A DNA stretch of 64,000 bases from Patescibacteria group bacterium (GCA_022703425.1 JAKLDQ010000001.1:36243-100242); one strand, 5' to 3'. Shown: positions 684-54,858, numbered from the stretch's first letter. Notes: generated from the sequence alone by a model not told the origin. Translations and numbers: made by a program.

Positions 684-2216
684 ATGCCAAAGGAGCAGTT
701 GTATAAAGTCAAAGGAATGCATTGTGCATCGTGCGAAATACTCATCGAAAAAAAGATGCTGGAACTCGAGGGTGTTAAGGCTGCAGATGCGTCAACCCAT
801 AAAGGGGAGGTAATAATCGAATACGAAGGGGAAAAGCCCGATGAAAAAAAACTGAACACGATTTTTTCCAAGGAAGGGTACAGCTTTTCTGAAAATGAAA
901 TTTCAAAGAAAGAGGAAAAGAAAAATACTATGAGTCCGACGCTTTTTGCGTTTGATATCGCGCTATTTATTATTATTGCTTTCTTGTTTTTGGACAGAGC
1001 GGGAATTTCAGGCCTTTCGGGCGTCAGCTCCGGATCGTCAATCCCTGCTTTCTTCATTTTCGGTTTGCTTGCGGGAATTTCAAGTTGCGCGGCGCTGGTC
1101 GGGGGAATCGTCCTTTCCATGTCAAAGCAGTGGCTTGAAATATATTCAGAAAATCAAAAGTTCTCAAAAAAAATCCAGCCCCATGTAATGTTTAATGCAG
1201 GAAGGGTAGCTTCCTATGCTCTCTTCGGCGGTCTTCTCGGTCTGGTCGGCTCAAAACTCCAGTTCTCATTGCAGGCAAGCTCATTTCTGATAATTGCAAT
1301 CTCTTTTTTAATGGTCGCAATGGGCCTGCAGATGCTCGGCGTAAAAGCATTCAGAAAATTTCAGATAGCTCCTCCGAAATTTATCACCAGAAATATTGCA
1401 GACGAAAGAAATTTTCAGGGAAAGCTGATGCCGTTAATAATGGGCGCTTTGACTTTCTTCCTGCCTTGCGGGTTTACAATCACAGCCCAGGGAATCGCAC
1501 TTTTGTCGGGAAGCTTTGTAAAAGGATCCCTGATAATGTCGGCGTTCGCCCTCGGGACGGTTCCCATGCTGATGCTTATCGGGCTTTCAAGCGCAAAATT
1601 TTCGTCAAAACCTCATTTGGCTGAAAGGTTTTCCAAAATTGCCGGATTTCTGGTTTTGTTTTTTGCGCTTTTCAATATAAACGGCCAGCTGAATGTCCTT
1701 GGATTCTCCGGAATAAATTCTCTCTTCGGTTCGGGCGAAAGCGCCAAAGTTGAAAATCTTCCGCCAATGGTCGAGGGAAAACAGATAATAAAAATGGAGG
1801 CGTCGGCATCAGGTTACAGCCCGAATTATTTCAAGGTGCGCGCAAACGTTCCGGTAAGATGGGAAATCACAGACATCGGCACAAGCGGGTGCACGAATGC
1901 GGTTATTTCGAGAAATTTGTTCGACGGGCAGGTGGATCTCGAACCGGGAAAACTTTCGGTGAAAGAGTTTACCCCCGCAACTCCCGGCAAATACAGGTTT
2001 TCCTGCTGGATGGGAATGGTTTCCGGAACGATTGAGGTTATAGATGAAAACAGCGGAAACGCAGGAAATGATTCATCTTCAAATGAAGCAAACTCAAACC
2101 CGGGTAACGTTGCTTCCGCCTCCGCGTCCAATTCCTGCGGAGGGTCATGCGGAGGCTCGTGCGGATGCGGAGGAAAAAAACCATCCGGATCGGGACAAGG
2201 AGCAAGCTGTCATTAA
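684..2216 (+). CDS. fusion protein: N-terminal HMA metal-binding domain, DsbD_2/CcdA-like polytopic permease, C-terminal cupredoxin-like domain, Cys/Gly tail
   Basis: GMHCASCE HMA motif; TM segments with conserved Cys (GISSCAALVGG, FFLPCGFT); C-terminal beta-sandwich segment ...FSCWMGMVSGTIEV; tail CGGSCGGSCGCGG. Confidence 0.7.
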   Translation: MPKEQLYKVKGMHCASCEILIEKKMLELEGVKAADASTHKGEVIIEYEGEKPDEKKLNTIFSKEGYSFSENEISKKEEKKNTMSPTLFAFDIALFIIIAFLFLDRAGISGLSGVSSGSSIPAFFIFGLLAGISSCAALVGGIVLSMSKQWLEIYSENQKFSKKIQPHVMFNAGRVASYALFGGLLGLVGSKLQFSLQASSFLIIAISFLMVAMGLQMLGVKAFRKFQIAPPKFITRNIADERNFQGKLMPLIMGALTFFLPCGFTITAQGIALLSGSFVKGSLIMSAFALGTVPMLMLIGLSSAKFSSKPHLAERFSKIAGFLVLFFALFNINGQLNVLGFSGINSLFGSGESAKVENLPPMVEGKQIIKMEASASGYSPNYFKVRANVPVRWEITDIGTSGCTNAVISRNLFDGQVDLEPGKLSVKEFTPATPGKYRFSCWMGMVSGTIEVIDENSGNAGNDSSSNEANSNPGNVASASASNSCGGSCGGSCGCGGKKPSGSGQGASCH

Positions 2217-6294: not shown

Positions 6295-7086
6295 ATGTTC
6301 GGATTAAACAAAACAACTCCAAAGTTTTGCGAATTAAAGGGAAAAGTAGCAATCGTTACGGGGGCAGCCAAAGGAATGGGAAAAGCCGATGCAATAAAAT
6401 TTGCAAATGCAGGCGCAAAAGTTGTCCTTGCAGATATTTCCCAGCAGGAATGCGAATCTGTTGCCACAGAAATTAAGAAGATGCGCGGAGAAGCGATAGC
6501 AGTAAAATGCGATGTGAGTAAGAAAGCAGATGTTGATACGGTCGTTTCAGAAGCAATTAAAAAATTCGGCAAAATTGATATTCTGGTGAACAATGCGGGA
6601 ATTTTTCCGTTCGAACCCTTTCTGCAAATGCCCGAACAAAACTTTGAAAAAGTCATCGACGTAAACCTTAAAGGAAGCTTTTTGATGGCCCAGGCATGCG
6701 CAAATGAAATGGCAAAGCAGAAATCCGGATCAATCATAAATATTACATCAATTGCGATGGGGCAGGTTGGCATGGGATTTGCCGGCCTTTCCCATTATTG
6801 CGCATCAAAAGGCGGAATGGTGGGAATGTCTGAAGCTATGGCTCTGGAGCTTGCTCCCTTGGGAATACGTGTAAACTGTATTGCCCCCGGAGCCATTGAT
6901 ACGCCCGGCGCTTCTTCAACAAGATTGGATGTAAAGCAAATGGAGGCGATGCTTGCTCCTATTCCGATGAAAAGAAAAGGGAGCGCAGAAGAAGTCGCAA
7001 ACGCAGTGCTTTTTCTTGCCTCAGACGAGTCATCTTATATGACCGGATCTGTGATGATTGTGGACGGTGGCTGGTGCGCAAATTAA
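6295..7086 (+). CDS. SDR-family oxidoreductase (FabG-like)
   Basis: VAIVTGAAKGMG Rossmann motif; NNAG; YxxxK (YCASK). Confidence 0.85.
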   Translation: MFGLNKTTPKFCELKGKVAIVTGAAKGMGKADAIKFANAGAKVVLADISQQECESVATEIKKMRGEAIAVKCDVSKKADVDTVVSEAIKKFGKIDILVNNAGIFPFEPFLQMPEQNFEKVIDVNLKGSFLMAQACANEMAKQKSGSIINITSIAMGQVGMGFAGLSHYCASKGGMVGMSEAMALELAPLGIRVNCIAPGAIDTPGASSTRLDVKQMEAMLAPIPMKRKGSAEEVANAVLFLASDESSYMTGSVMIVDGGWCAN

Positions 7087-7405: not shown

Positions 7406-8311
7406 CGTATGAAAAAAATTCCGGCAACAATCTGTATTGCCCTTTTTGCTCTTAATTTTTTTGCCTGGCAGGAAGTATTTTATCTGCAAAGGCCGAAACT
7501 GCTGGAGGTTGTTTTCTTTGATGTTGGGCAGGGTGATTCGGCACTTATAAAAACTCCGGAAGGACGCCAGATTTTAATCGACGGGGGGCCGGATTCGTCT
7601 GTTTTGGAAAAGCTTTCACAGGAAATGCCTTTTGCAGACAGAACAATCGACGCAATAATTCTGACGCATCCCGAAAAAGACCATTTTACCGGATTTCTGG
7701 ATGTTCTTGAAAGATATGATGTGCAGTATGTTTTCTGGACAGGGACAAGGAGCGACAATGCAGAATATAAAAAATGGACAGAGGCGGTTGAAAATGAGAA
7801 GAAAAATATCTGGCTTGCCGGAGGAAAAAAAGAAAATACAAAAATTTTTGAAATAAAAAAGGGCGCAAACATCAGGGCGGGAAATGTTCTGATTGAAACT
7901 CTTTCTCCGGAAGAGAGCTTCAGTGGTGTTAAAATGAAAAATTCAAGCAATGATTCAGGAATTGTTTCTCTTCTGAAATACGGTGAAGTTTCATTTCTGT
8001 TTACAGGGGATATTGCTCAAAAAACAGAAAGCCGGCTTGCCAATTCTTACGGATTGGCAAATGCCTTTGGAATGGATATTGATGTTTTGAAAGTTGCCCA
8101 TCACGGCTCAAAGTATTCAACTTCGGAATTTTTTCTACAAAACACAAAACCGGAATTTGCCGTGATATCAGTCGGGAAAAATTCGTATGGCCATCCGACT
8201 CCTGAGGTTTTGCAAAGACTGGAAAAATTTGGTATAAAGGTTTTGAGAACAGACCGCGATGGAGATGTAAAATTTCTATCTGACGGGAAAAATTTAACAG
8301 TAAAAAAATAA
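7403..8311 (+). CDS. metallo-beta-lactamase-fold protein related to the ComEC C-terminal domain
   Basis: signal/TM; VVFFDVGQGDSALI; HPEKDHFTGF; VAHHGSKYS. Confidence 0.75.
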   Translation: MRMKKIPATICIALFALNFFAWQEVFYLQRPKLLEVVFFDVGQGDSALIKTPEGRQILIDGGPDSSVLEKLSQEMPFADRTIDAIILTHPEKDHFTGFLDVLERYDVQYVFWTGTRSDNAEYKKWTEAVENEKKNIWLAGGKKENTKIFEIKKGANIRAGNVLIETLSPEESFSGVKMKNSSNDSGIVSLLKYGEVSFLFTGDIAQKTESRLANSYGLANAFGMDIDVLKVAHHGSKYSTSEFFLQNTKPEFAVISVGKNSYGHPTPEVLQRLEKFGIKVLRTDRDGDVKFLSDGKNLTVKK

Positions 8312-8315
8312 TTTT

Positions 8316-9386
8316 ATGAAAGACTTAGACTTTCCGATATTTAAAACAAAAAGTGCTTCATATAAAAAATTTGACCTTACCGATGTAAAACATAGGCAGG
8401 AGTATTTTGAATATAAAGCCGGTGATGAAATTAAAAGAATGAGGGAATTTTTGAAAGAAAACACATTTATTGCCTACCTCATGGGGAAAAAATCTTCCGG
8501 AAAAGGAACGTATGCAAAAATGCTTGCAGAGATCATTGATAAAGACGGGATTGCTCATTTTTCCATTGGAGACATGATACGATCCTTTGATGAAACTGTC
8601 AGGGATCCCGAAAAAAGAAAAGAACTGGAAGAATTTTTGAAGAAAAATTACAGGGGATACCATTCGCTCGACAAAATAGTACAGTCTCTGCAGGAAAGAT
8701 CAACGAAAACATTGCTGCCATCAGAATTAATTCTGGCTTTGGCAAAAAGAGAAATTGCAAAGCTTGGCAGGAAAGCAATTTTTATTGACGGTTTTCCGCG
8801 CGACTTGGATCAAGTTTCGTATTCGCTGTTTTTCCGCGACCTTATCGGATATAGGGAAGATCCTGACGTGTTTATTTTAATTGATGTTCCCACAACAGTG
8901 ATTGATGAAAGGGTAAAAACAAGAGTTATCTGCCCGCTGTGCCAAACGTCAAGAAGCACAAAGCTTCTTCCAACAAAGAATGTTGAGTATGAAAAAGAGA
9001 CGGGCAAATTCCATTTAATATGTGACAATTCGTCCTGCAAGGGCGCAAGGATGGTAATGAAAGAAGGCGATGAGCACGGAATTGCCCCGATAAAAGAAAG
9101 GCTGGATAAAGACGAACTCCTGATTAAGGAGGCATATAATTTGCAGGGAATTCCAAAAGTGCTTTTGAGAAATACAATCCCGGTTGAAAAAACGGGGGAG
9201 TTTGCCGACGATTATGAAATTACTCCGGAATTTTCATACTCATACGACGAAAAGAGCGGTAAAGTTGAAATTTCGGAAAAGCCGTGGGAGGTAAAAGACG
9301 ATGAGGGAATGTCTTCAAACAGTCTGATGCCGCCTCCGGTTGTCGTATCTCTTATCAAACAGCTTGTGGAGGTTTTGGGCATTTAA
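8316..9386 (+). CDS. adenylate-kinase-family NMP kinase paralog with zinc lid and ~130-aa C-terminal extension
   Basis: P-loop GKKSSGKGTYAK; lid CPLC...CDNSSC; canonical adk is elsewhere at 42759. Confidence 0.6.
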   Translation: MKDLDFPIFKTKSASYKKFDLTDVKHRQEYFEYKAGDEIKRMREFLKENTFIAYLMGKKSSGKGTYAKMLAEIIDKDGIAHFSIGDMIRSFDETVRDPEKRKELEEFLKKNYRGYHSLDKIVQSLQERSTKTLLPSELILALAKREIAKLGRKAIFIDGFPRDLDQVSYSLFFRDLIGYREDPDVFILIDVPTTVIDERVKTRVICPLCQTSRSTKLLPTKNVEYEKETGKFHLICDNSSCKGARMVMKEGDEHGIAPIKERLDKDELLIKEAYNLQGIPKVLLRNTIPVEKTGEFADDYEITPEFSYSYDEKSGKVEISEKPWEVKDDEGMSSNSLMPPPVVVSLIKQLVEVLGI

Positions 9387-9719: not shown

Positions 9720-12041
9720 ATGGCAAAAAATTTATCTCTGGCGATAAAAATCTGCGACAAAGCAGCAAAATTCAGCGTTTACGCCCTTGCGTTCTTTCTG
9801 CCTCTGGCAGTTCTCCCCGTTACGGCAGATCCGGTTGATTTTAACAAGCAGGCGGTTCTGCTTTTACTGGCTTTTATCGGCCTTTCTGCAACCGTGGTAA
9901 AAGCCCTGATTTCGGGCAAGCTGGATTTAAATTTAAACAAAACATATATTCCCGTTTTGCTGGTTGTGCTGGCGTACGGGCTCTCAACGATTCTTTCGCT
10001 TGATAACAACTCGAGCTTTTGGGGATTTACGAAAAACAGTTCTGAAAGTTTGTTAACGGTTTTTTGCCTTGCGGTGATTTACTTTTTAATTTCAGTTTTC
10101 GGAAAAGAAGAAACTTTTAATCTTCTGAAAACTTTTATTGCGTCCTGCGCAGTTGCGGTTTTTGCCGGATTCATCCAGCTTTCGGGAATTCCATTTTTAA
10201 ATATTTCAAAAATTTTCAGCTTCAATACGATTGGTCTTGTTTCCAGCCTTGGAATTTTTGTCGCCATAGCCATTCCCTTGCTGACAGCGCTCTCTATGGC
10301 GGACAAAAGCTGGATAAGGTGGCTTGCCTTAGCGGCGCTGATTTTCTCTGCTGTATTGCTGGTGATAATCAATTTCCAGCTTGCATGGTGGCTTGTTCTT
10401 GCCGGATCTGTTTTTTTTGTTTTATTTTCCATGCTGAAAAAGGACTTGTTCGATTTAAGATGGCTGAGCATCCCGACCTTTTTTCTTGTTGTGGCATTGT
10501 TTTTTATTTTAATAAAACCGCAGATAGCATTATTCAGCAGGCCAACAGAAGTGATTCTTGGCCAGACGTCCGGCCTTGAGGTTGCGCTTAAAACTCTCTC
10601 AAAATTTCCTGTAACAGGTTCCGGTCCGGGCACATTTGTTTATGATTTTTCGAAGTACAAAAATGCCGACTTCGGCAAGGGTCCGCTTTGGAACCTGAGG
10701 TTTGATTCAGCCGGGTCAAAATTCTTGACTGTTGCGGCAACCACGGGCGCGATCGGAATAATTGCGTTTATTTCCCTGATATTAACTGTTCTTTTTTATA
10801 TCTTCAGATATCTGGCTTCCAAACACAGCGAAGTTGATGAAAGCGAAAACGGGGAGTGGATTTTGGGCGGATCTGCGATTGTTTCCATTTTGCTGATTGT
10901 GCTTGCTTATTTTCTGGGAAATTCAAATTTGGCTTTGGATTTTGCATTTTTTCTGCTTATTGCTGTGTTTATCGCGCTTGTTTCAAAAAACAAAAAAGAA
11001 TACACGCTTTCGCCTTCTTCGCTTCTAACCCTGGGCGTCACATTTTTATCGACCTTATTTTTGATTTTCGGTCTGGGGATAGTTATTCTATATGGCCAGC
11101 GTTACTATGCCGAAACAAGATATTTATCCGGTATTAAAGAGCTTTCGGCCGGAAATTTGGACGCGGGGATAAAATTGCTAGAAAAATCTGTAACGTTAAA
11201 TCCGAAGCAAGACTCGTATCTGCTGGAGTTGTCTCAAGCATATCTTGTTAAAGCCACGCAGCAGGCAAACAAAGAAAGCTTGTCGGATTCTGAAAAAAGA
11301 AATATTGAACTTCTCGTGAACAACGCAATAAACGGAACGAAAATCGCCACGGATATAAGTCCAAATAGTGCGGGCAATTGGTCTGTGCGCGGATATGTTT
11401 ATCAGAATATCATCGGGCTTGTGCAGAGCGCCGAGGATTGGGCAATGACATCTTATGATAAGGCAATTGAGCTTGAGCCAGCAAATCCGTACTACTATAC
11501 GCAACAGGGATCCGTTTTGGCGAGCAAAGCACTTTTGCCCGCAAACGCTACTTCAAAAAACAAAATTCTGGAAGAAGCAATTGTAAAACTTAACGAGGCG
11601 ATAAAAATAAAATCAGATTATAGTCCGGCAAGATTCCAGCTGGCAATGGTTTATCAGGCGCAGGGGAAAATTAACGAGGAGATAAGCGCTCTGTCTGAAG
11701 CCATTAAAGAATCGCCAAACGATCCGGGTTTGTATTATCAATTAGGGATTGTATATTTTCAAACAGGAAGATACCAGAACGCAAAAACTCAGCTTGAGAA
11801 AGCAGTAAGCTTGAATTCTGAATATGCGAATGCGCTGTATTCGCTTGCTCTTACATATGAAAAACTTGGGCAAAAAGAAAAGTCTCTTGAAACCATGGAA
11901 AAAGTCGCAAGCATTTATCCAAATAATGCTCAGGTAAAAAAAGTTTTGGAGAATATCAGAAGCGGGCAAAGTGCGCTTTCCGGAATAGGGGAAACGTCGC
12001 CAGGGCCGGTCCAGGAAGCCCCTCCAGAAGTTAAAAAATAG
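9720..12041 (+). CDS. O-antigen ligase/polymerase-like (Wzy/WaaL) polytopic membrane protein with C-terminal TPR repeats
   Basis: ~12 TM helices over the first 420 aa; C-terminal TPR-like repeats (AxxYxxxG spacing). Confidence 0.6.
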   Translation: MAKNLSLAIKICDKAAKFSVYALAFFLPLAVLPVTADPVDFNKQAVLLLLAFIGLSATVVKALISGKLDLNLNKTYIPVLLVVLAYGLSTILSLDNNSSFWGFTKNSSESLLTVFCLAVIYFLISVFGKEETFNLLKTFIASCAVAVFAGFIQLSGIPFLNISKIFSFNTIGLVSSLGIFVAIAIPLLTALSMADKSWIRWLALAALIFSAVLLVIINFQLAWWLVLAGSVFFVLFSMLKKDLFDLRWLSIPTFFLVVALFFILIKPQIALFSRPTEVILGQTSGLEVALKTLSKFPVTGSGPGTFVYDFSKYKNADFGKGPLWNLRFDSAGSKFLTVAATTGAIGIIAFISLILTVLFYIFRYLASKHSEVDESENGEWILGGSAIVSILLIVLAYFLGNSNLALDFAFFLLIAVFIALVSKNKKEYTLSPSSLLTLGVTFLSTLFLIFGLGIVILYGQRYYAETRYLSGIKELSAGNLDAGIKLLEKSVTLNPKQDSYLLELSQAYLVKATQQANKESLSDSEKRNIELLVNNAINGTKIATDISPNSAGNWSVRGYVYQNIIGLVQSAEDWAMTSYDKAIELEPANPYYYTQQGSVLASKALLPANATSKNKILEEAIVKLNEAIKIKSDYSPARFQLAMVYQAQGKINEEISALSEAIKESPNDPGLYYQLGIVYFQTGRYQNAKTQLEKAVSLNSEYANALYSLALTYEKLGQKEKSLETMEKVASIYPNNAQVKKVLENIRSGQSALSGIGETSPGPVQEAPPEVKK

Positions 12042-26164: not shown

Positions 26165-28252
26165 TTGTTTAAAATTATGCCTCGTAAACATCCTTTAGAC
26201 AAACTAAGAAATATCGGAATTATTGCTCACATCGATGCTGGAAAGACAACTTTCTCTGAGCGTCTTTTGTTTTACACCGGAGTTTCCCACAAAATCGGAG
26301 AAGTACACGAGGGAGAGGCAGTCATGGACTGGATGGTTCAGGAAAGAGAGAGGGGAATTACAATCACCTCCGCTGCCACGACAATGTATTGGAAAGATTA
26401 CCAGATAAACCTTATTGATACCCCCGGACACATCGACTTTACCGCCGAGGTTCAGAGGTCTCTAAGAGTTTTGGACGGCGCGGTTGTCGTATTTGACGGA
26501 GTTGCCGGAGTTGAGCCTCAGTCAGAAACAGTATGGAGACAGGCAGACAAATATTCTGTTCCAAGAATGTGCTTTGTTAACAAGCTGGACAGAATGGGAG
26601 CATCTTTCGACAAGAGCTTTGATTCAATTTTAAAAAAACTGACCCCGAATGCAGTTGCTATTGAAATTCCGATGGGTGTTGAAGAAAAAATGTCAGGTGT
26701 GATTGATCTGCTTAAAATGAAAGCATTGTATTTTGAAGGCGAAAAAGGAACAACAGTTGTAGAAAAAGAAATTCCGGAGGAATTTAAGGCAGAAGCTGAA
26801 AAATGGCACAAAATCGCAGTTGAAAAAATCGCAGGCGACGACGACATTCTTACAGAAAAATTTTTGGAGGGAAAAGAAATTTCTTTGGAAGAATTGAAAG
26901 CCGCTTTGAGGCGCGCAGTTCTTGCTTATAGGCTGGTTCCGGTTTTGTGCGGAACAGCACTGAAAAACAAGGGAGTCCAGCCCGTTTTGGATGCAGTTGT
27001 TGATTATCTTCCTTCTCCATTGGATTTGCCCGCACAAAAAGGAACAGATCCGAAAACAGCAGCTGTTATAGAAAGAAAGGCAGATGACAACGAACCGTTT
27101 GCCGCTTTGGTTTTTAAAATCGCAGCAGACCCTTATGTGGGAACTCTTACATATTTCAGGATTTATTCGGGAGTTTTGAAAAAGGGATCTTATGTTTTAA
27201 ATGCAAATACAGGAGAACAGGAAAGAATTGCCAGAATTTTGAGGATGCACGCCGATTCAAGGCAGGAATTGGACGAACTTTATGCCGGAGAAATCGGAGC
27301 AACTGTCGGATTGAAGGCAACAAACACAGGACACACTCTTTGTGAAAAGACAGCTCCTGTAATTCTGGAGAAAATCGTATTTCCAGAGCCCGTTATCGGA
27401 ATCAGAGTGGAGCCGAAAACAAAAGCCGACCAGGAGAAACTTATTATGTCTATCAGGAAGCTCACAGAAGAAGATCCGACTTTCAGAATCAAAGAGGACC
27501 TGGAAACAGGAGACACTGTTATTTCCGGAATGGGAGAACTGCACTTGGATATTATTGCCGACAGATTGAGGAGAGAGTTCCATGTTGACGCAAACTACGG
27601 AAGACCGCAGGTTGCATACAAAGAAACAATTTTGGCCGAAGCCAATGGTGAAGAAAAATATGTAAGGCAGTCGGGAGGAAAGGGACAATACGGACACGTA
27701 TTGCTGAAAATCAAGCCGAAAGAGAGGGGAGCGGGATTTGAATTCATCGATGAAATCAAGGGAGGAGCAATTCCAAAAGAATTTATCGCTCCTGTTGAAA
27801 AAGGAGTAAAAGAAGCAATGGACAAAGGAATCGTTGCAGGATATCCGATGGTTGATGTTGAAGTTACGCTTTATGACGGAAGCTATCACGATGTTGACTC
27901 ATCTGAATTCGCTTTCAAGATTGCAGGATCTATGGCATTCCAGAAAGCGGCCAAAGCTGCAAAACCGATCATACTTGAGCCGGTCATGAAAACAGAGGTT
28001 ATTACTCCGCCGGATTTCTTCGGACAGGTTATTTCTGATTTAAGTTCAAGAAGAGGAAAAATCGAAGAAACATCAGAAAGAGTCGGGATGAAAGTCATCG
28101 ATGTAATGGTTCCATTGTCTGAAATGTTTGGATATGCAACAGGATTGAGATCTCTCACAGAAGGAAGGGCGAGCTTTACAATGGAATTTGACCACTATGA
28201 ACAGGTGCCAGCTAATGTGGCACAAGAGATTATAGACGGAAAAAGACAGTAA
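26165..28252 (+). CDS. fusA: elongation factor G
   Basis: AHIDAGKTT; DTPGHIDF; NKLD; full EF-G domain set. Confidence 0.95.
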
Positions 28253-28268
28253 ACTCTAATAAGTAAAA

Positions 28269-28294
28269 ATGCGCACGAAAATGCGCATTTTTTG
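28269..28294 (+). terminator. fusA rho-independent terminator
   Basis: ATGCGCACGAAAATGCGCAT followed by TTTTTT. Confidence 0.7.
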
Positions 28295-28310
28295 TTGAAA
28301 ACTAAAATTT

Positions 28311-28630
28311 GCCGAACGGCTCACTCCGCCAGGGCACCAGTGCAATATTAGGAATCAGATTTAGAATACAAAAAATGAGCTGATTTCAAGACGCAGCGAG
28401 GAGGTTGTGCAAAGTGTTTGCACATCGACGAAGCTGTAACGACGAAATCAGCCATTTTTTGTATTCCCTTCGGGGCGGGCCAATTACAGCAATCTTCTGC
28501 GTTGCTCGTCGCGAACGATGCATTTCTCGCTGCATCAGTTCGCTTCCTCGCGCCTTGAAATATTGCTGTAATTGGCTCCGCTAAATTGATTCTAATATTG
28601 TACTGGCGCCCTAGGAGCCGTTCGGGTTTT
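28311..28630. repeat. ~320-bp nested-palindrome element: ~45-bp imperfect terminal inverted repeats enclosing two internal ~100-nt hairpin arms; MITE-like or structured RNA
   Basis: CCGAACGGCTCACTCCGCCAGGGCACCAGTGCAATATTAG versus CTAATATTGTACTGGCGCCCTAGGAGCCGTTCGG; inner pairs GAATACAAAAAATGAGCTGATTTC/GAAATCAGCCATTTTTTGTATTC and GGGCCAATTACAGCAAT/ATTGCTGTAATTGGCTCC. Confidence 0.5.
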
Positions 28631-28639
28631 GTAAAAAAA

Positions 28640-28671
28640 GAGCCCCGTAGTATACCTATGGGGCAAAAAGT
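28640..28671 (-). terminator. rho-independent terminator of the minus-strand DUF4177 operon
   Basis: minus-strand GCCCC-13nt-GGGGC followed by TCTTTTTTT. Confidence 0.6.
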
Positions 28672-28704
28672 CTTTGTCTTGCGACTCAGATACATATATT
28701 TACT

Positions 28705-29010
28705 TTACTCCTGACCGGAATATTCCTCGCCGGGAGCCAAAGCTTGGTAATTCTTCCAGAGATCCCTCCGCATCTCCTCAGGGGAGGGAAGTTCTGATAA
28801 AGATTCCTCCGCTTCCTCAATCAGAGTGTGTCCGACGGAGGATGGTGTTTGCACTGCGGACGGATCGGGAACTTCGCGAATCAAGACGTAAACGAGCTCA
28901 CTTCTTGAAATGGTGACTTTCCATCCGTTCTTTTCATCTTTGCCTAATATCTTCCGGGAAATTTCCGGAGGCGTATCGATTGGCAGACGAATCTCTTTTG
29001 TTTCTTTCAC
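28705..29010 (-). CDS. DUF4177-like paralog 4 (partial similarity)
   Basis: GWKVTISRSELVYVLIREVPDPS shares the GW...IxEREVP(E/D) signature with the three upstream paralogs. Confidence 0.45.
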   Translation of the reverse strand: MKETKEIRLPIDTPPEISRKILGKDEKNGWKVTISRSELVYVLIREVPDPSAVQTPSSVGHTLIEEAEESLSELPSPEEMRRDLWKNYQALAPGEEYSGQE

Positions 29011-29112
29011 CGCGTTCTCCTTTCTTCGCCCGCCGTAGCTTTAGCGAAGGCGCGCTTTGACCAAAGTAGCTTGCGAAGGCGGGTTTTGTTGAGTTTGTCG
29101 GACCCGATGAGA

Positions 29113-29697
29113 CTATTCAAAGCCTCCGGGTTTTAGCTCCGAAAGCTGTCCAAGGGTCATCTCTCTTGTTTTGCTGTTCGGATTTACCTCCACTTTTCCC
29201 GGAGTTCTTTCAAAGTGTTCTCTGGGAATATCCCGGACAACAATTTCCTCGTCGGGCGGACGATCAAATTCGGGGATAGGTCCCCAAAATCTCTGGTCTC
29301 CTAATACTGGAAACCACCTGTTGCAACCAATTAAGAGATATTGTCCGCGTACCACTTTTACAATTTCTATTTCAGGTTCCTCTCCAATTTCTGTGAAATA
29401 ATATCCGTTGTCTGGACTTGTAGCCCTTTCAAGATTCGCCCAAACGGACTCCGGCTGTTCAATCCGGAATTTTCCGTCGTCACCGATAACTCTGCGCTCG
29501 ACAACCGTTTCGGGTGCGGGCGTTTTCGTTTCTGGAACTTCGCGCTCCATTAGAATAAATGAATCGTTGTAGAGAAACGAGCAGAGGGGTGGCACTATGC
29601 GCCATCCTTCCTTTGCCGCTGAATTCAGCTCTTTTGCCCAGTCATCGCTATCTGGACTGCCAAACGGCCGCAAGATTTTGTATTCTACCTTACTCAT
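29113..29697 (-). CDS. DUF4177-like domain protein with ~130-aa C-terminal extension (paralog 3)
   Basis: VEYKILRP...WAKELNSAAKEGWRIV...FILMEREVPETK; AAGGAG RBS. Confidence 0.55.
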   Translation of the reverse strand: MSKVEYKILRPFGSPDSDDWAKELNSAAKEGWRIVPPLCSFLYNDSFILMEREVPETKTPAPETVVERRVIGDDGKFRIEQPESVWANLERATSPDNGYYFTEIGEEPEIEIVKVVRGQYLLIGCNRWFPVLGDQRFWGPIPEFDRPPDEEIVVRDIPREHFERTPGKVEVNPNSKTREMTLGQLSELKPGGFE

Positions 29698-29720
29698 TGC
29701 AATCTCCTTTTTTTTATAGA

Positions 29721-30041
29721 TTAAAGCGGCCTTAGGCCAGAGTGCATTTGCCGGAAATGATCATCCAGATCACCCGGAAAACGCTTCTCGCAAAGCTGAC
29801 AATACATCTCGTATTCTGGCGAAGCCAGTTCCGGTAAGGCCGTTTCGGGAACCTCGCGCTCGAGAGTTGCAATATAAGCGAGAGTTGTCCCAGTTTCTCG
29901 AACCTTCGCTCCGGGAAAAACAGCTGAAAAAATAACCTTGTAGCCATTATTTGCCAATACATTCAGCGCTTTTTCGAACGATGTCGCGCCTTCTTCGGCT
30001 ACGCACTTGTATTCGTATCTTTTCATTGGGTTCTCCTTCAC
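29721..30041 (-). CDS. DUF4177-like domain protein with C-terminal C2H2-like zinc-finger motif (paralog 2)
   Basis: YEYKCV...FEKALNVLANNGYKVI...ATLEREVPETA; CQLCEKRFPGDLDDHFRQMH. Confidence 0.55.
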   Translation of the reverse strand: MKENPMKRYEYKCVAEEGATSFEKALNVLANNGYKVIFSAVFPGAKVRETGTTLAYIATLEREVPETALPELASPEYEMYCQLCEKRFPGDLDDHFRQMHSGLRPL

Positions 30042-30253
30042 ATTCCTGTGTCACAACCAGCAAACGCGTCGTGAGGTGTTGCGCCTTTCGGACGCTTGAA
30101 AACGAAGACGGTGACGTTCGGAGTGTGGCTGGTAATTGAGCGAAGTTCTGAAGAGGTTGTTAGCTCCCAGCCTTGCTCTCCAAACTTGTCGAGTTCTTTC
30201 TCAAGATCTTCCTGATCGTAAGTAAGTCGTTGACACATGTACTCCCACCTCAT
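30038..30253 (-). CDS. DUF4177-like small protein (paralog 1)
   Basis: MRWEYMCQRL...LEKELDKFGEQGWELTTSS...VFVFKRP matches the canonical DUF4177 pattern (WEYK...EELEkkLNeLGeeGWELV...FKRP). Confidence 0.6.
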   Translation of the reverse strand: MRWEYMCQRLTYDQEDLEKELDKFGEQGWELTTSSELRSITSHTPNVTVFVFKRPKGATPHDAFAGCDTGM

Positions 30254-30330
30254 TATTTTCTCCTTTCGAAAACGAGAAGACAGAGTACAAATAGGGCGAA
30301 AGCCATTGCAATCGTTTCTGCCATGTTCAT
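30253..30330 (-). CDS. 25-aa hydrophobic leader peptide MNMAETIAMAFALFVLCLLVFERRK, overlapping the next gene by TAATG
   Basis: perfect AAGGAGGG Shine-Dalgarno 5 nt upstream of the ATG; directly downstream of the near-consensus promoter. Confidence 0.4.
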   Translation of the reverse strand: MNMAETIAMAFALFVLCLLVFERRK

Positions 30331-30388
30331 AAAAACCCTCCTTGGTCAGAGAAATCCTAAAAAGATTTTCAAAATGCTAAGTGGCTGA

Positions 30389-30417
30389 TTTATATCATCT
30401 TTAATGGTTATTGTCAA
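30389..30417 (-). promoter_or_regulatory. near-consensus sigma70 promoter TTGACA-17-TATAAA on the minus strand, driving the island operon
   Basis: reverse complement reads TTGACAATAACCATTAAAGATGATATAAA. Confidence 0.5.
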
Positions 30418-30560
30418 TGTATAAAATCTGATGCTTTTTAGTTGTTGACTTGGCAAAAAATATAGGTTATTATTACTTTAAGTTTTGCTTTACAGGAATT
30501 TGTTAAAATTCCGAAATTTTTGTAAAGCAGAGGTTTTGTTTTTCCGACACCCAAAACGGG

Positions 30561-30589
30561 TTGACGGATTACAAAAAATATAATAATAT
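30561..30589 (+). promoter_or_regulatory. candidate tuf promoter TTGACG-17-TAATAT
   Basis: read directly; ~90 nt upstream of the tuf ATG; a second candidate TTGACT-17-TATTAT lies at 30445-30473. Confidence 0.35.
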
Positions 30590-30678
30590 AAGTTCATATT
30601 AAATTCCAGATTCGAAATCGCAAATCACTCTATGTAATTTGTAGATTGTAATTTGGAATTTCGTAAATAAAAAATAAT

Positions 30679-31872
<1,194 letters not shown>

Positions 31873-54219: not shown

Positions 54220-54858
54220 GTGATGAAAATGAAAGTAGCAGTGGCGGTATTGGTTCTCGCATTCGCCAGTATGGCCAAGGGCGATACGCTGGATGGAAGC
54301 TATCTTGTTCCGGGCTCCACTTTGACCGAAAGTTATGTTTTCGATAACTACAATTTCGGCGGTGGCATCCAGAACTACGTTTATTACCATGAGGGCGCTC
54401 CTCAGTTCGAGTGGGCACATCTCTGGGTTAGCTTTAACAGCGCCTATCGGCTGATTGGCAGTCCGGCATGGATTTTTGAGTCTGAGCCGGGAAGCAAGCA
54501 GTGGACGGCCACTTTGAGCTTTTCTGGAGTGGAAACGATGGACAATACCAGGTCAATGGCTTATTCGCCGGCATTCCTATATGTTAATGGGTGGGAAGCA
54601 CGGGGCGGAGTTATGACCCTCTGTGAATATGGAAATCCACTCTGGGTCAATCTAAATGCGTCCCTGCAGGTAAGCCCGTTTGCCAAGGCAAACAACTTCG
54701 ATTTCCAGTTTACGGAAACGCCGGATCCAACGGGGACTGTCCACTTTCAAGGAACTTATACTGCATATGGCGAATTTGCACCTGTTCCCGAGCCGAGCGC
54801 ACTTGTGCTAATGCTTGGTGTTGTTGCAGGCGGAATGCTGATTTTTCGCAAAAAATAA
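54220..54858 (+). CDS. secreted protein with C-terminal PEP-CTERM sorting signal
   Basis: signal peptide; C-terminal PVPEPS + TM (ALVLMLGVVAGGMLIF) + RKK; locally elevated GC. Confidence 0.6.
   Translation: MMKMKVAVAVLVLAFASMAKGDTLDGSYLVPGSTLTESYVFDNYNFGGGIQNYVYYHEGAPQFEWAHLWVSFNSAYRLIGSPAWIFESEPGSKQWTATLSFSGVETMDNTRSMAYSPAFLYVNGWEARGGVMTLCEYGNPLWVNLNASLQVSPFAKANNFDFQFTETPDPTGTVHFQGTYTAYGEFAPVPEPSALVLMLGVVAGGMLIFRKK

Follow-up and report, generated by a model that had tools for sequence, protein, structure and literature searches.

Two independent things appear to share the interval between fusA and tuf in a 64,000-nucleotide (64-kb) stretch of a metagenome-assembled genome of the Patescibacteria, or candidate phyla radiation (CPR) (Patescibacteria group bacterium, GCA_022703425.1, JAKLDQ010000001.1:36243-100242; referred to here as the window): a cassette of four small genes of the DUF4177 family (p1 to p4) and a separate 310-nucleotide (nt) structured element located between the cassette and fusA. 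As an explanation of the whole interval, we give this two-part account an even chance; the gene structure, family membership, synteny, covariation, and copy variants that enter into it are observed. A preliminary description of the window had treated positions 28296 to 30420 as a single GC-rich foreign operon. The portion from 28296 to 28700, however, is not operon sequence and holds the independent structured element at 28314 to 28623. In a literature search, no description of the DUF4177 cassette or of the 310-nt element was found.

Four co-directional small genes do lie between fusA and tuf on the opposite strand, as had been described, and each of the four minus-strand open reading frames (ORFs) is preceded by a strong AAGGAG ribosome-binding site. 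The most canonical DUF4177/sP36-like member is p1 (30038 to 30253; 71 amino acids [aa]). It is followed by p2 (29721 to 30026; 101 aa from its ATG, or 106 aa from an alternative GTG start at 30041), in which a DUF4177-like domain and an EREVPE motif are joined to a zinc-finger-like tail (CxxC-x10-HxxxxH). The largest member, p3 (29113 to 29697; 194 aa), combines a DUF4177-like N-domain and EREVPE with a VVERRVIGDDGKFRIE hairpin and a beta-rich C-domain (DNGYYFT...FWGPIP), and p4 (28705 to 29010; 101 aa; pI 4.8) is a divergent, probable family member with an acidic Pro/Glu tail. The C2H2-like finger of p2 and the extension of about 130 aa in p3, both remarked on in the preliminary description, recur in relatives. 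All four proteins are acidic (pI 4.8 to 5.4) and hydrophilic with a net charge of -3 to -11, and no signal peptide or transmembrane (TM) segment was detected in any of them. The spacer between p3 and p4 (29011 to 29112; 102 nt) contains a tandem near-repeat, GCGAAGGCGCGCTTTG / GCGAAGGCGGGTTTTG on the plus strand, that may be an internal hairpin or attenuator of the operon.

The cassette has its own expression signals, and those reported previously were located at both ends. A sigma-70-like promoter (TTGACA-17-TATAAA; 30389 to 30417, minus strand) lies upstream of p1, and an intrinsic terminator, a GCCCC...GGGGC hairpin followed by seven T residues (28633 to 28664, minus strand), follows p4. 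Near-consensus promoters comparable to that of the window are also found 5' of the cassettes on contigs L087, L092, and L095, and a 24-nt core of the terminator is conserved with the relative L087 (10959 to 10982). Upstream of p1 is a tentative hydrophobic ORF of 25 codons (MNMAETIAMAFALFVLCLLVFERRK; 30253 to 30330, minus strand; grand average of hydropathy, 1.1), the stop of which overlaps the p1 start as TAATG, which would couple the two in translation. No counterpart of this ORF was found in L087 or L092. On contig L111 (4875 to 5000), the only DUF4177 gene is extended in frame at its 5' end by a TM-like segment; together, the 25-codon ORF and this fusion hint at membrane association. The same tail, AGC(D/E)TGM-stop, ends both p1 (30038 to 30060) and the last L087 cassette gene (10858 to 10881), two proteins that are barely alignable apart from it; in the window this tail overlaps the p2 ribosome-binding site.

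The DUF4177 homology of the cassette family is solid and is based on profile evidence; the single Pfam matches fall under the curated cutoff. Against PF13783, with its gathering cutoff of 25 bits, p1 scored 23.8 bits and p2 and p3 scored 18.8 bits each, while p4 had no Pfam match; relatives scored 17 to 21 bits, likewise under the cutoff. Ten of 13 family members match PF13783 alone, and every consistent Pfam match is to DUF4177. In an hhalign comparison, the N-domain profile aligned with the published DUF4177 protein PEG 446 over the whole domain (columns 1-56 to 1-64; probability, 97.3%; E value, 2.4e-11), and a family-profile search recovered 290 proteins, most of them with PF13783. In leave-one-out family hidden Markov models (HMMs), p1 scored 46 bits and p2 30.6 bits; p4 reached 8.0 bits (E value, 1.4e-4 for one sequence), a score as high as which was given by none of 1,000 shuffles. 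The earlier characterization of the genes as DUF4177-like paralogues is therefore upheld for p1 to p3 through profile homology, despite single matches under the Pfam cutoff, and p4 is a probable, divergent member. A 64-aa minus-strand ORF in the fusA-tuf spacer of contig L005 was considered as a DUF4177 relic and rejected (marginal 7.3 bits, equaled by 1 of 1,000 shuffles; HMM scan not significant).

Structure predictions agree with this assignment. The AlphaFold2 model of p1 is beta-alpha-beta-beta (strand 3-10, helix 14-26, strands 30-37 and 47-55; predicted local distance difference test [pLDDT], 79), and in p3 the N-domain, also beta-alpha-beta-beta, has a pLDDT of about 90 and the C-domain one of about 50. 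The same beta-alpha-beta-beta fold has been published for PEG 446 (PMC11322243). The DUF4177 landmarks WEY, GWEL, and KR are found in the family, with variants kept in p2 and p3 and no WEY in p4. The trailing (I/L)xEREVP(E/D) signature pointed out in the preliminary description is real and recurs in relatives. Within the ERE(I/V)PE(P) motif, ER corresponds to the conserved KR that closes the last strand throughout the family, and E(I/V)PEP occurs only in a small and rare subfamily, for which searches of 1.8 to 5.8 billion proteins yielded about 10 close relatives; in a word-indexed search of 5.8 billion proteins, p2 had no homologue besides itself. The tails of this subfamily are modular: a VVERRVIGEDGKMRIE hairpin, an NDGYYWT...FWGPIP domain, and a CxxC...HxxxxH finger are shuffled among members, and the p2-type finger is also present in P0004 and P0008. 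Amino acid identity among p1, p2, and p3 does not exceed 37%, over short stretches, whereas identity reaches 56% between p1 and L092_89 and 47% between p3 and L092_115. Cassettes of two to four genes with p1-like and p3-like members adjoin DUF5679-thiI-mnmA in Nealsonbacteria-like contigs, and because p1 and p3 are closer to members of these thiI-linked cassettes than to the genes of the syntenic L087, the paralogues are old. The subfamily and its cassette organization are new within a known, uncharacterized family.

The structured element (28314 to 28623, plus strand) was delimited by folding z-score, covariation, and repeat boundaries. It folds as a three-way junction (z-score, -12.4 to -12.9): a long stem closes the structure, and each of the two arms measures about 100 nt. 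Base complementarity links the purine internal loops CGACGA and CGAGGAG, in arm 1, with the pyrimidine loops UCGUCG and CUCCUCG of arm 2. Its secondary structure is conserved, with covariation above controls. A homologue downstream of ndk in the Yanofskybacteria genome L025, the EF-G of which is 63% identical, shows 21 compensatory pairs, and a metagenome scan with the conserved core of the element yielded 14 further loci. In an alignment of ten distinct element sequences, 94% of cells are paired and double changes occur in 42 of the 89 pairs; shuffles gave a mean of 25.8, with none of 500 reaching 42, and slid partners gave 10 to 16. An ORF within this portion (28348 to 28695; 115 aa) was rejected as a fifth gene, having no family match, a non-coding GC phase, and a position inside the element.

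Most copies of the element start with GGGG(N)3-GGAUUCGAAC (GGGG...GGATTCGAAC) and end with GGUUCGAAUCC-(N)7-A (GGTTCGAATCC...CCCC-A), and covariation of the terminal 7 bp resembles that of an acceptor stem. In the window copy, AAUAUU replaces UUCGAA. In the window lineage, the arm-1 interior (28364 to 28466; alignment columns 90 to 150) has the opposite orientation to that in every other copy, an inversion to be expected if the inverted repeats of the arm recombined with each other; one variant, L101, is without arm 1. Several copies occur inside translation operons, in the order tuf-element-rpsJ (L099 and L108) and after rpsE (L109).

Most likely, the element is a structured RNA gene on the plus strand that is also a multicopy repeat. 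Its transcription would be consistent with the pairing pattern, in which G-U (37) exceeds A-C (14) and so favors the strand co-directional with fusA, and with the intrinsic terminators found 3' of the element on the same strand at several loci. Between lineages with EF-G only 63% identical, the sequence of unpaired blocks such as TTCTNCGTTGCTCGTCG hardly varies. In Rfam 15, only generic hairpin (miRNA-precursor) matches far under their gathering scores were obtained. Known candidates other than tmRNA, namely attC, bridge RNA, signal recognition particle RNA, RNase P, and 6S RNA, were rejected by reasoning only, as defining motifs are absent or the partner gene is not nearby.

Several observations suggest mobility at the DNA level in place of, or in addition to, an RNA role, and it is possible, if doubtful, that the element is instead a mobile palindrome, similar to repetitive extragenic palindrome (REP) doublets (REPINs) or miniature inverted-repeat transposable elements and moved by an HUH transposase of the IS200 or REP-associated tyrosine transposase (RAYT) type. 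At least three near-identical variants occur in different contexts in the same samples, two copies are on one 71-kb contig, and contigs break at the element; its layout is a palindrome of palindromes, and the inverted arm-1 interior of the window copy points in the same direction. On contig L103, an IS200/RAYT-like Y1_Tnp gene (36.5 bits; 709 to 1425, minus strand) abuts an element copy, and a homologue of this gene (42% identical) is located on L100 (7479 to 8120), 5.5 kb from another copy; these two genes keep the REPIN-like DNA reading alive. The L103 transposase, however, is flanked by REP-like hairpins of its own (CTGTGGATAACCGAC...; 1400 to 1440) that are unlike the element in sequence, copy number is one or two per contig, and the 64-kb window has a single copy and no RAYT. 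A palindrome mobilized as DNA would also sit poorly with the near invariance of the unpaired blocks and with a G-U bias on the very strand that is followed by terminators. No phage or plasmid match was found for the element, and a viral scan with its core gave one chance match only.

A second difficulty is that the element lies at a point where assemblies disagree. In three other assemblies (L119, L120, and L123), an identical fusA, followed by the element, is joined not to the cassette but to an ABC-transporter operon: five single-nucleotide polymorphisms are confined to 28529 to 28597, the sequences diverge after 28623 (28527 to 28624 in the window; 6353 to 6448 on the three contigs), and an ABC2/ABC/DUF4015 operon follows. 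This counts against the gene order of the window, and because the assemblies diverge at a repeated element, the fusA-cassette join could be either real or a path through the repeat, with the cassette next to tuf only. Contig L122 ends at 28527 and a JGI cassette contig begins at 28423, and a third copy of the element, 98% identical, lies in yet another context, beside OTCase and prmC (L097; 2396 to 2698). We nevertheless regard an assembly artifact as unlikely and favor a real join. A second assembly (L121) continues into p4 as the window does, and the two agree at 100% through the junction and as far as 29284; three related lineages have fusA, the DUF4177 gene or genes, and tuf adjacent to each other, in the absence of the element; and only the version found in the window has the full closing stem GCCGAACGGCTC/GAGCCGTTCGG. 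The junction on the tuf side is secure.

Nearly all genes are on the plus strand, including fusA (EF-G; 26165 to 28252), the exact protein of which is encoded on five other contigs, and tuf (EF-Tu; 30679 to 31872), which adjoins the cassette on contigs of three samples. A bidirectional intrinsic terminator (GCGCA-loop-TGCGC with A-run and T-run flanks; 28264 to 28290) follows fusA. Between the cassette and tuf is an AT-rich (30% GC) divergent control region (30254 to 30678) with promoter-like sites on the plus strand at 30445 to 30473 and 30561 to 30589.

The positions of cassette and element among translation genes invite a joint reading, to which we assign a tentative place. The element would be an undescribed class of large structured RNA of the Patescibacteria, and the cassette would encode clade-specific modulators of the translation machinery. 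The tmRNA-like termini of the element would then go together with pairing, invariant loops that resemble Shine-Dalgarno and anti-Shine-Dalgarno sequences, a suggestion of similarly low probability. Its frequent placement in translation operons (after fusA, tuf, and rpsE), the small number of copies, and the association with points of recombination or rearrangement could, no more firmly, be accommodated as well. A more specific proposal, that p1 to p4 associate with RNA or ribosomes and are tuned to translation, would explain the neighborhood of fusA and tuf or of thiI and mnmA (tRNA thiolation). It is distinctly unlikely: the proteins are acidic, their fold matches are non-specific, and, with so much of these very small genomes given over to translation genes, the context may be due to chance.

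The preliminary description regarded the cassette as a foreign mobile module wedged into a normally contiguous fusA-tuf pair. In the Patescibacteria, the pair is not normally contiguous: of 33 CPR relatives that have both fusA and tuf, 28 show a gap of more than 400 bp, and the gap can reach 5 kb, compared with mostly 50 to 200 bp in non-CPR bacteria. Family genes are present in the spacer, on the strand opposite to fusA and tuf, in each of the four lineages of the clade within which EF-G identity is 81 to 88%, so that comparison of the junction across relatives revealed one to four family genes at the site and no presence/absence polymorphism. The window has four; L087 has three and a PaaX/Cas2-like gene; L111 to L114, named Candidatus Staskawiczbacteria at NCBI, have one of 76 aa; and L115 to L118 have one of 78 aa. 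In the next clade (EF-G 75 to 79% identical), no family genes were found in the spacer, nor were any found at this locus in more distant genomes. On this comparative evidence, the cassette locus is best regarded as an old resident of the fusA-tuf spacer in a clade near Candidatus Staskawiczbacteria and not as a foreign insertion, and over a long time the cassette set has probably changed location or passed between CPR lineages.

The base composition is less extreme than had been claimed. No other 1.5-kb stretch of the window is as GC-rich as the cassette, but the cassette is at 48.3% where genes average 41.3% (z, 2.4), not at 50% against 38%, and fusA and tuf themselves are at 43 to 45%. The excess is mostly due to amino acid composition and lies mainly at first codon positions (GC1; z, 2.8), with a z of 1.6 at third positions (GC3). 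The highest GC content of any single gene in the window belongs to 54220 to 54858 (plus strand; 49.8% GC, 52% GC3), above that of the cassette.

Two observations weigh against long residence: in every lineage, GC content is higher in the cassettes than in the DNA on either side, and gene content differs strongly between syntenic relatives, which together are also compatible with repeated replacement by transfer. That the cassette is an accessory module, mobile and of recent acquisition, that entered the str operon and possibly serves in defense or anti-defense is nonetheless quite improbable. Its placement on the opposite strand with its own promoter and terminator, its rank in GC content, and the existence of related GC-richer cassettes at the DUF5679-thiI-mnmA locus, to which p1 and p3 are nearer than to the L087 genes, would all suit such a module. 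Position and strand are nevertheless the same in the four lineages, L087 shares the conserved terminator, an occupied spacer is the usual state in relatives, and most of the GC excess is in GC1. No integrase, transposase, or recombinase ORF was found between fusA and tuf, and direct repeats around the cassette, considered as att sites, were rejected as short pairs at chance level only. The suggested link to defense or phages was likewise abandoned: PADLOC gave no match for p1 to p4 or for the L087 cassette, PHROGs gave only weak matches to uncharacterized families, and p3 had no phage match.

Occupancy of the spacer is not peculiar to DUF4177 genes. Contigs L008, L014, L024, L025, L043, and others carry there a small Phd/YefM-like gene co-directional with fusA and tuf (20 to 26 bits, against a cutoff of 29.8), and spacers of other Patescibacteria hold pilin-like or large surface proteins. 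The fusA-tuf spacer is a general accessory-gene site in the Patescibacteria and is rarely empty. In L087, the place held by the structured element in the window is occupied by a 178-aa gene co-directional with fusA (11033 to 11569, minus strand), which has weak PaaX_M and Cas2-like matches. In L005, a second, GC-richer copy of the last 24 fusA codons (8270 to 8341) is found 193 nt past the real stop, with an identical peptide (MEFNKYEVVPNNVAQQIIESRGK), DNA about 70% identical, GC-rich flanks, and no Rfam match; it looks like the scar of an integration or recombination event at the 3' end of fusA.

For the proteins themselves, we tentatively propose that p1 to p4 are small, acidic, protein-binding adaptors, by analogy with the archaeal sP36. 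The cassette forms an autonomous unit divergent from tuf, running from its own strong promoter to its own terminator and encoding four anciently diverged paralogues and possibly also the 25-aa hydrophobic peptide. The domain of about 55 residues with its beta-alpha-beta-beta fold would serve as a protein-binding (docking) module, and the variable acidic Pro/Glu tails, together with the added zinc finger, beta-hairpin, and beta-rich domain, would set partner specificity, so that, in the cytoplasm, p1 to p4 could serve larger proteins as small adaptors or modulators. Structure searches with the cassette proteins gave no functional lead. That p1 to p4 are instead exported antimicrobial or host-interaction peptides, like the reportedly bacteriocin-like PEG 446 (66 aa, DUF4177), which was antibacterial when expressed recombinantly (PMC11322243), is very improbable despite the mostly episymbiotic lifestyle of the Patescibacteria and the hydrophobic mini-ORF 5' of p1, since neither signal peptides nor leader motifs nor genes for transport or immunity are found in the unit, the proteins are acidic and not cationic, and the evidence on PEG 446 is preliminary.

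DUF4177 is a widespread family of small proteins with almost no functional data, and a strongly promoted unit of four such genes offers a defined place to test binding partners, the more so for its fixed site and modular tails. The analysis also carries a caution for genome scanning, in that the foreign insert was deduced from rules derived from model bacteria, whereas the spacer is normally occupied in the Patescibacteria. Of the two objects in the interval, the structured element is the more unusual; it may matter more than the cassette and deserves a follow-up of its own. Covariation at 63% EF-G identity, absence from Rfam, repetition, and location at assembly disagreements are such that it could be a new RNA family, a new structured repeat, or both. 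Repeats of this kind can create or hide gene adjacencies in metagenome-assembled genomes.

Among known systems, the element invites comparison with tmRNA (ssrA), with which it shares ends of the GGGG/CCCC-A type, an acceptor-like terminal 7 bp, a length of about 300 nt, and a following terminator. It differs in that its ends form one continuous helix with no T-arm stem and no conserved tag. ARAGORN made no default call and inconsistent calls at a 70% threshold, and identification as tmRNA was rejected in view of the missing T stem, the lack of a conserved tag reading frame, and the absence of an ARAGORN or Rfam call. With REP/REPIN sequences and their RAYT (IS200-like Y1) transposases, the element has in common a palindromic repeat, compensatory changes in hairpins, and a Y1_Tnp gene beside one copy. 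In contrast to REP/REPIN sequences, it is three to six times longer, forms a three-way junction with long invariant unpaired blocks, is of low copy number with strand-biased G-U pairs and terminators after it, and has no RAYT in the window. The Phd/YefM-like genes resemble the DUF4177 cassette as small accessory genes in the same str-operon spacer, but they are single genes of an unrelated fold and family and are co-directional with fusA and tuf.

The closest functional parallel for the cassette is the sP36 of Methanosarcina mazei, which we take to be the published protein behind the NCBIfam family NF053529 (Sp36_fam). Against that model, p1 scored 33.7 bits (E value, 2.5e-8) over all 50 positions, under the cutoff of 50, and L087_114 scored 14.6 bits; p2 to p4 and the other proteins had no match. 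Similar size and predicted cytoplasmic location add to the likeness of p1 to sP36. In the 64-kb window, the part of the genome covered, tblastn with approximate Escherichia coli GlnK and AmtB queries gave no glnK or amtB match. The published sP36 is a 61-aa adaptor that acts between GlnK1 and AmtB1 (PMC10714827). With the PF13783 proteins, such as PEG 446 of Clostridium tyrobutyricum and YjzH of Bacillus subtilis, the cassette proteins share the beta-alpha-beta-beta domain of about 55 to 60 residues and the W-E-Y/G-W-E-L/(F)KR landmarks, and both groups are small, stand-alone, and uncharacterized. The cassette subfamily differs in scoring under the curated cutoff, in adding E(I/V)PEP after the last strand and then long acidic Pro/Glu tails with shuffled modules, and in occurring as multi-paralogue cassettes, in the Patescibacteria only.

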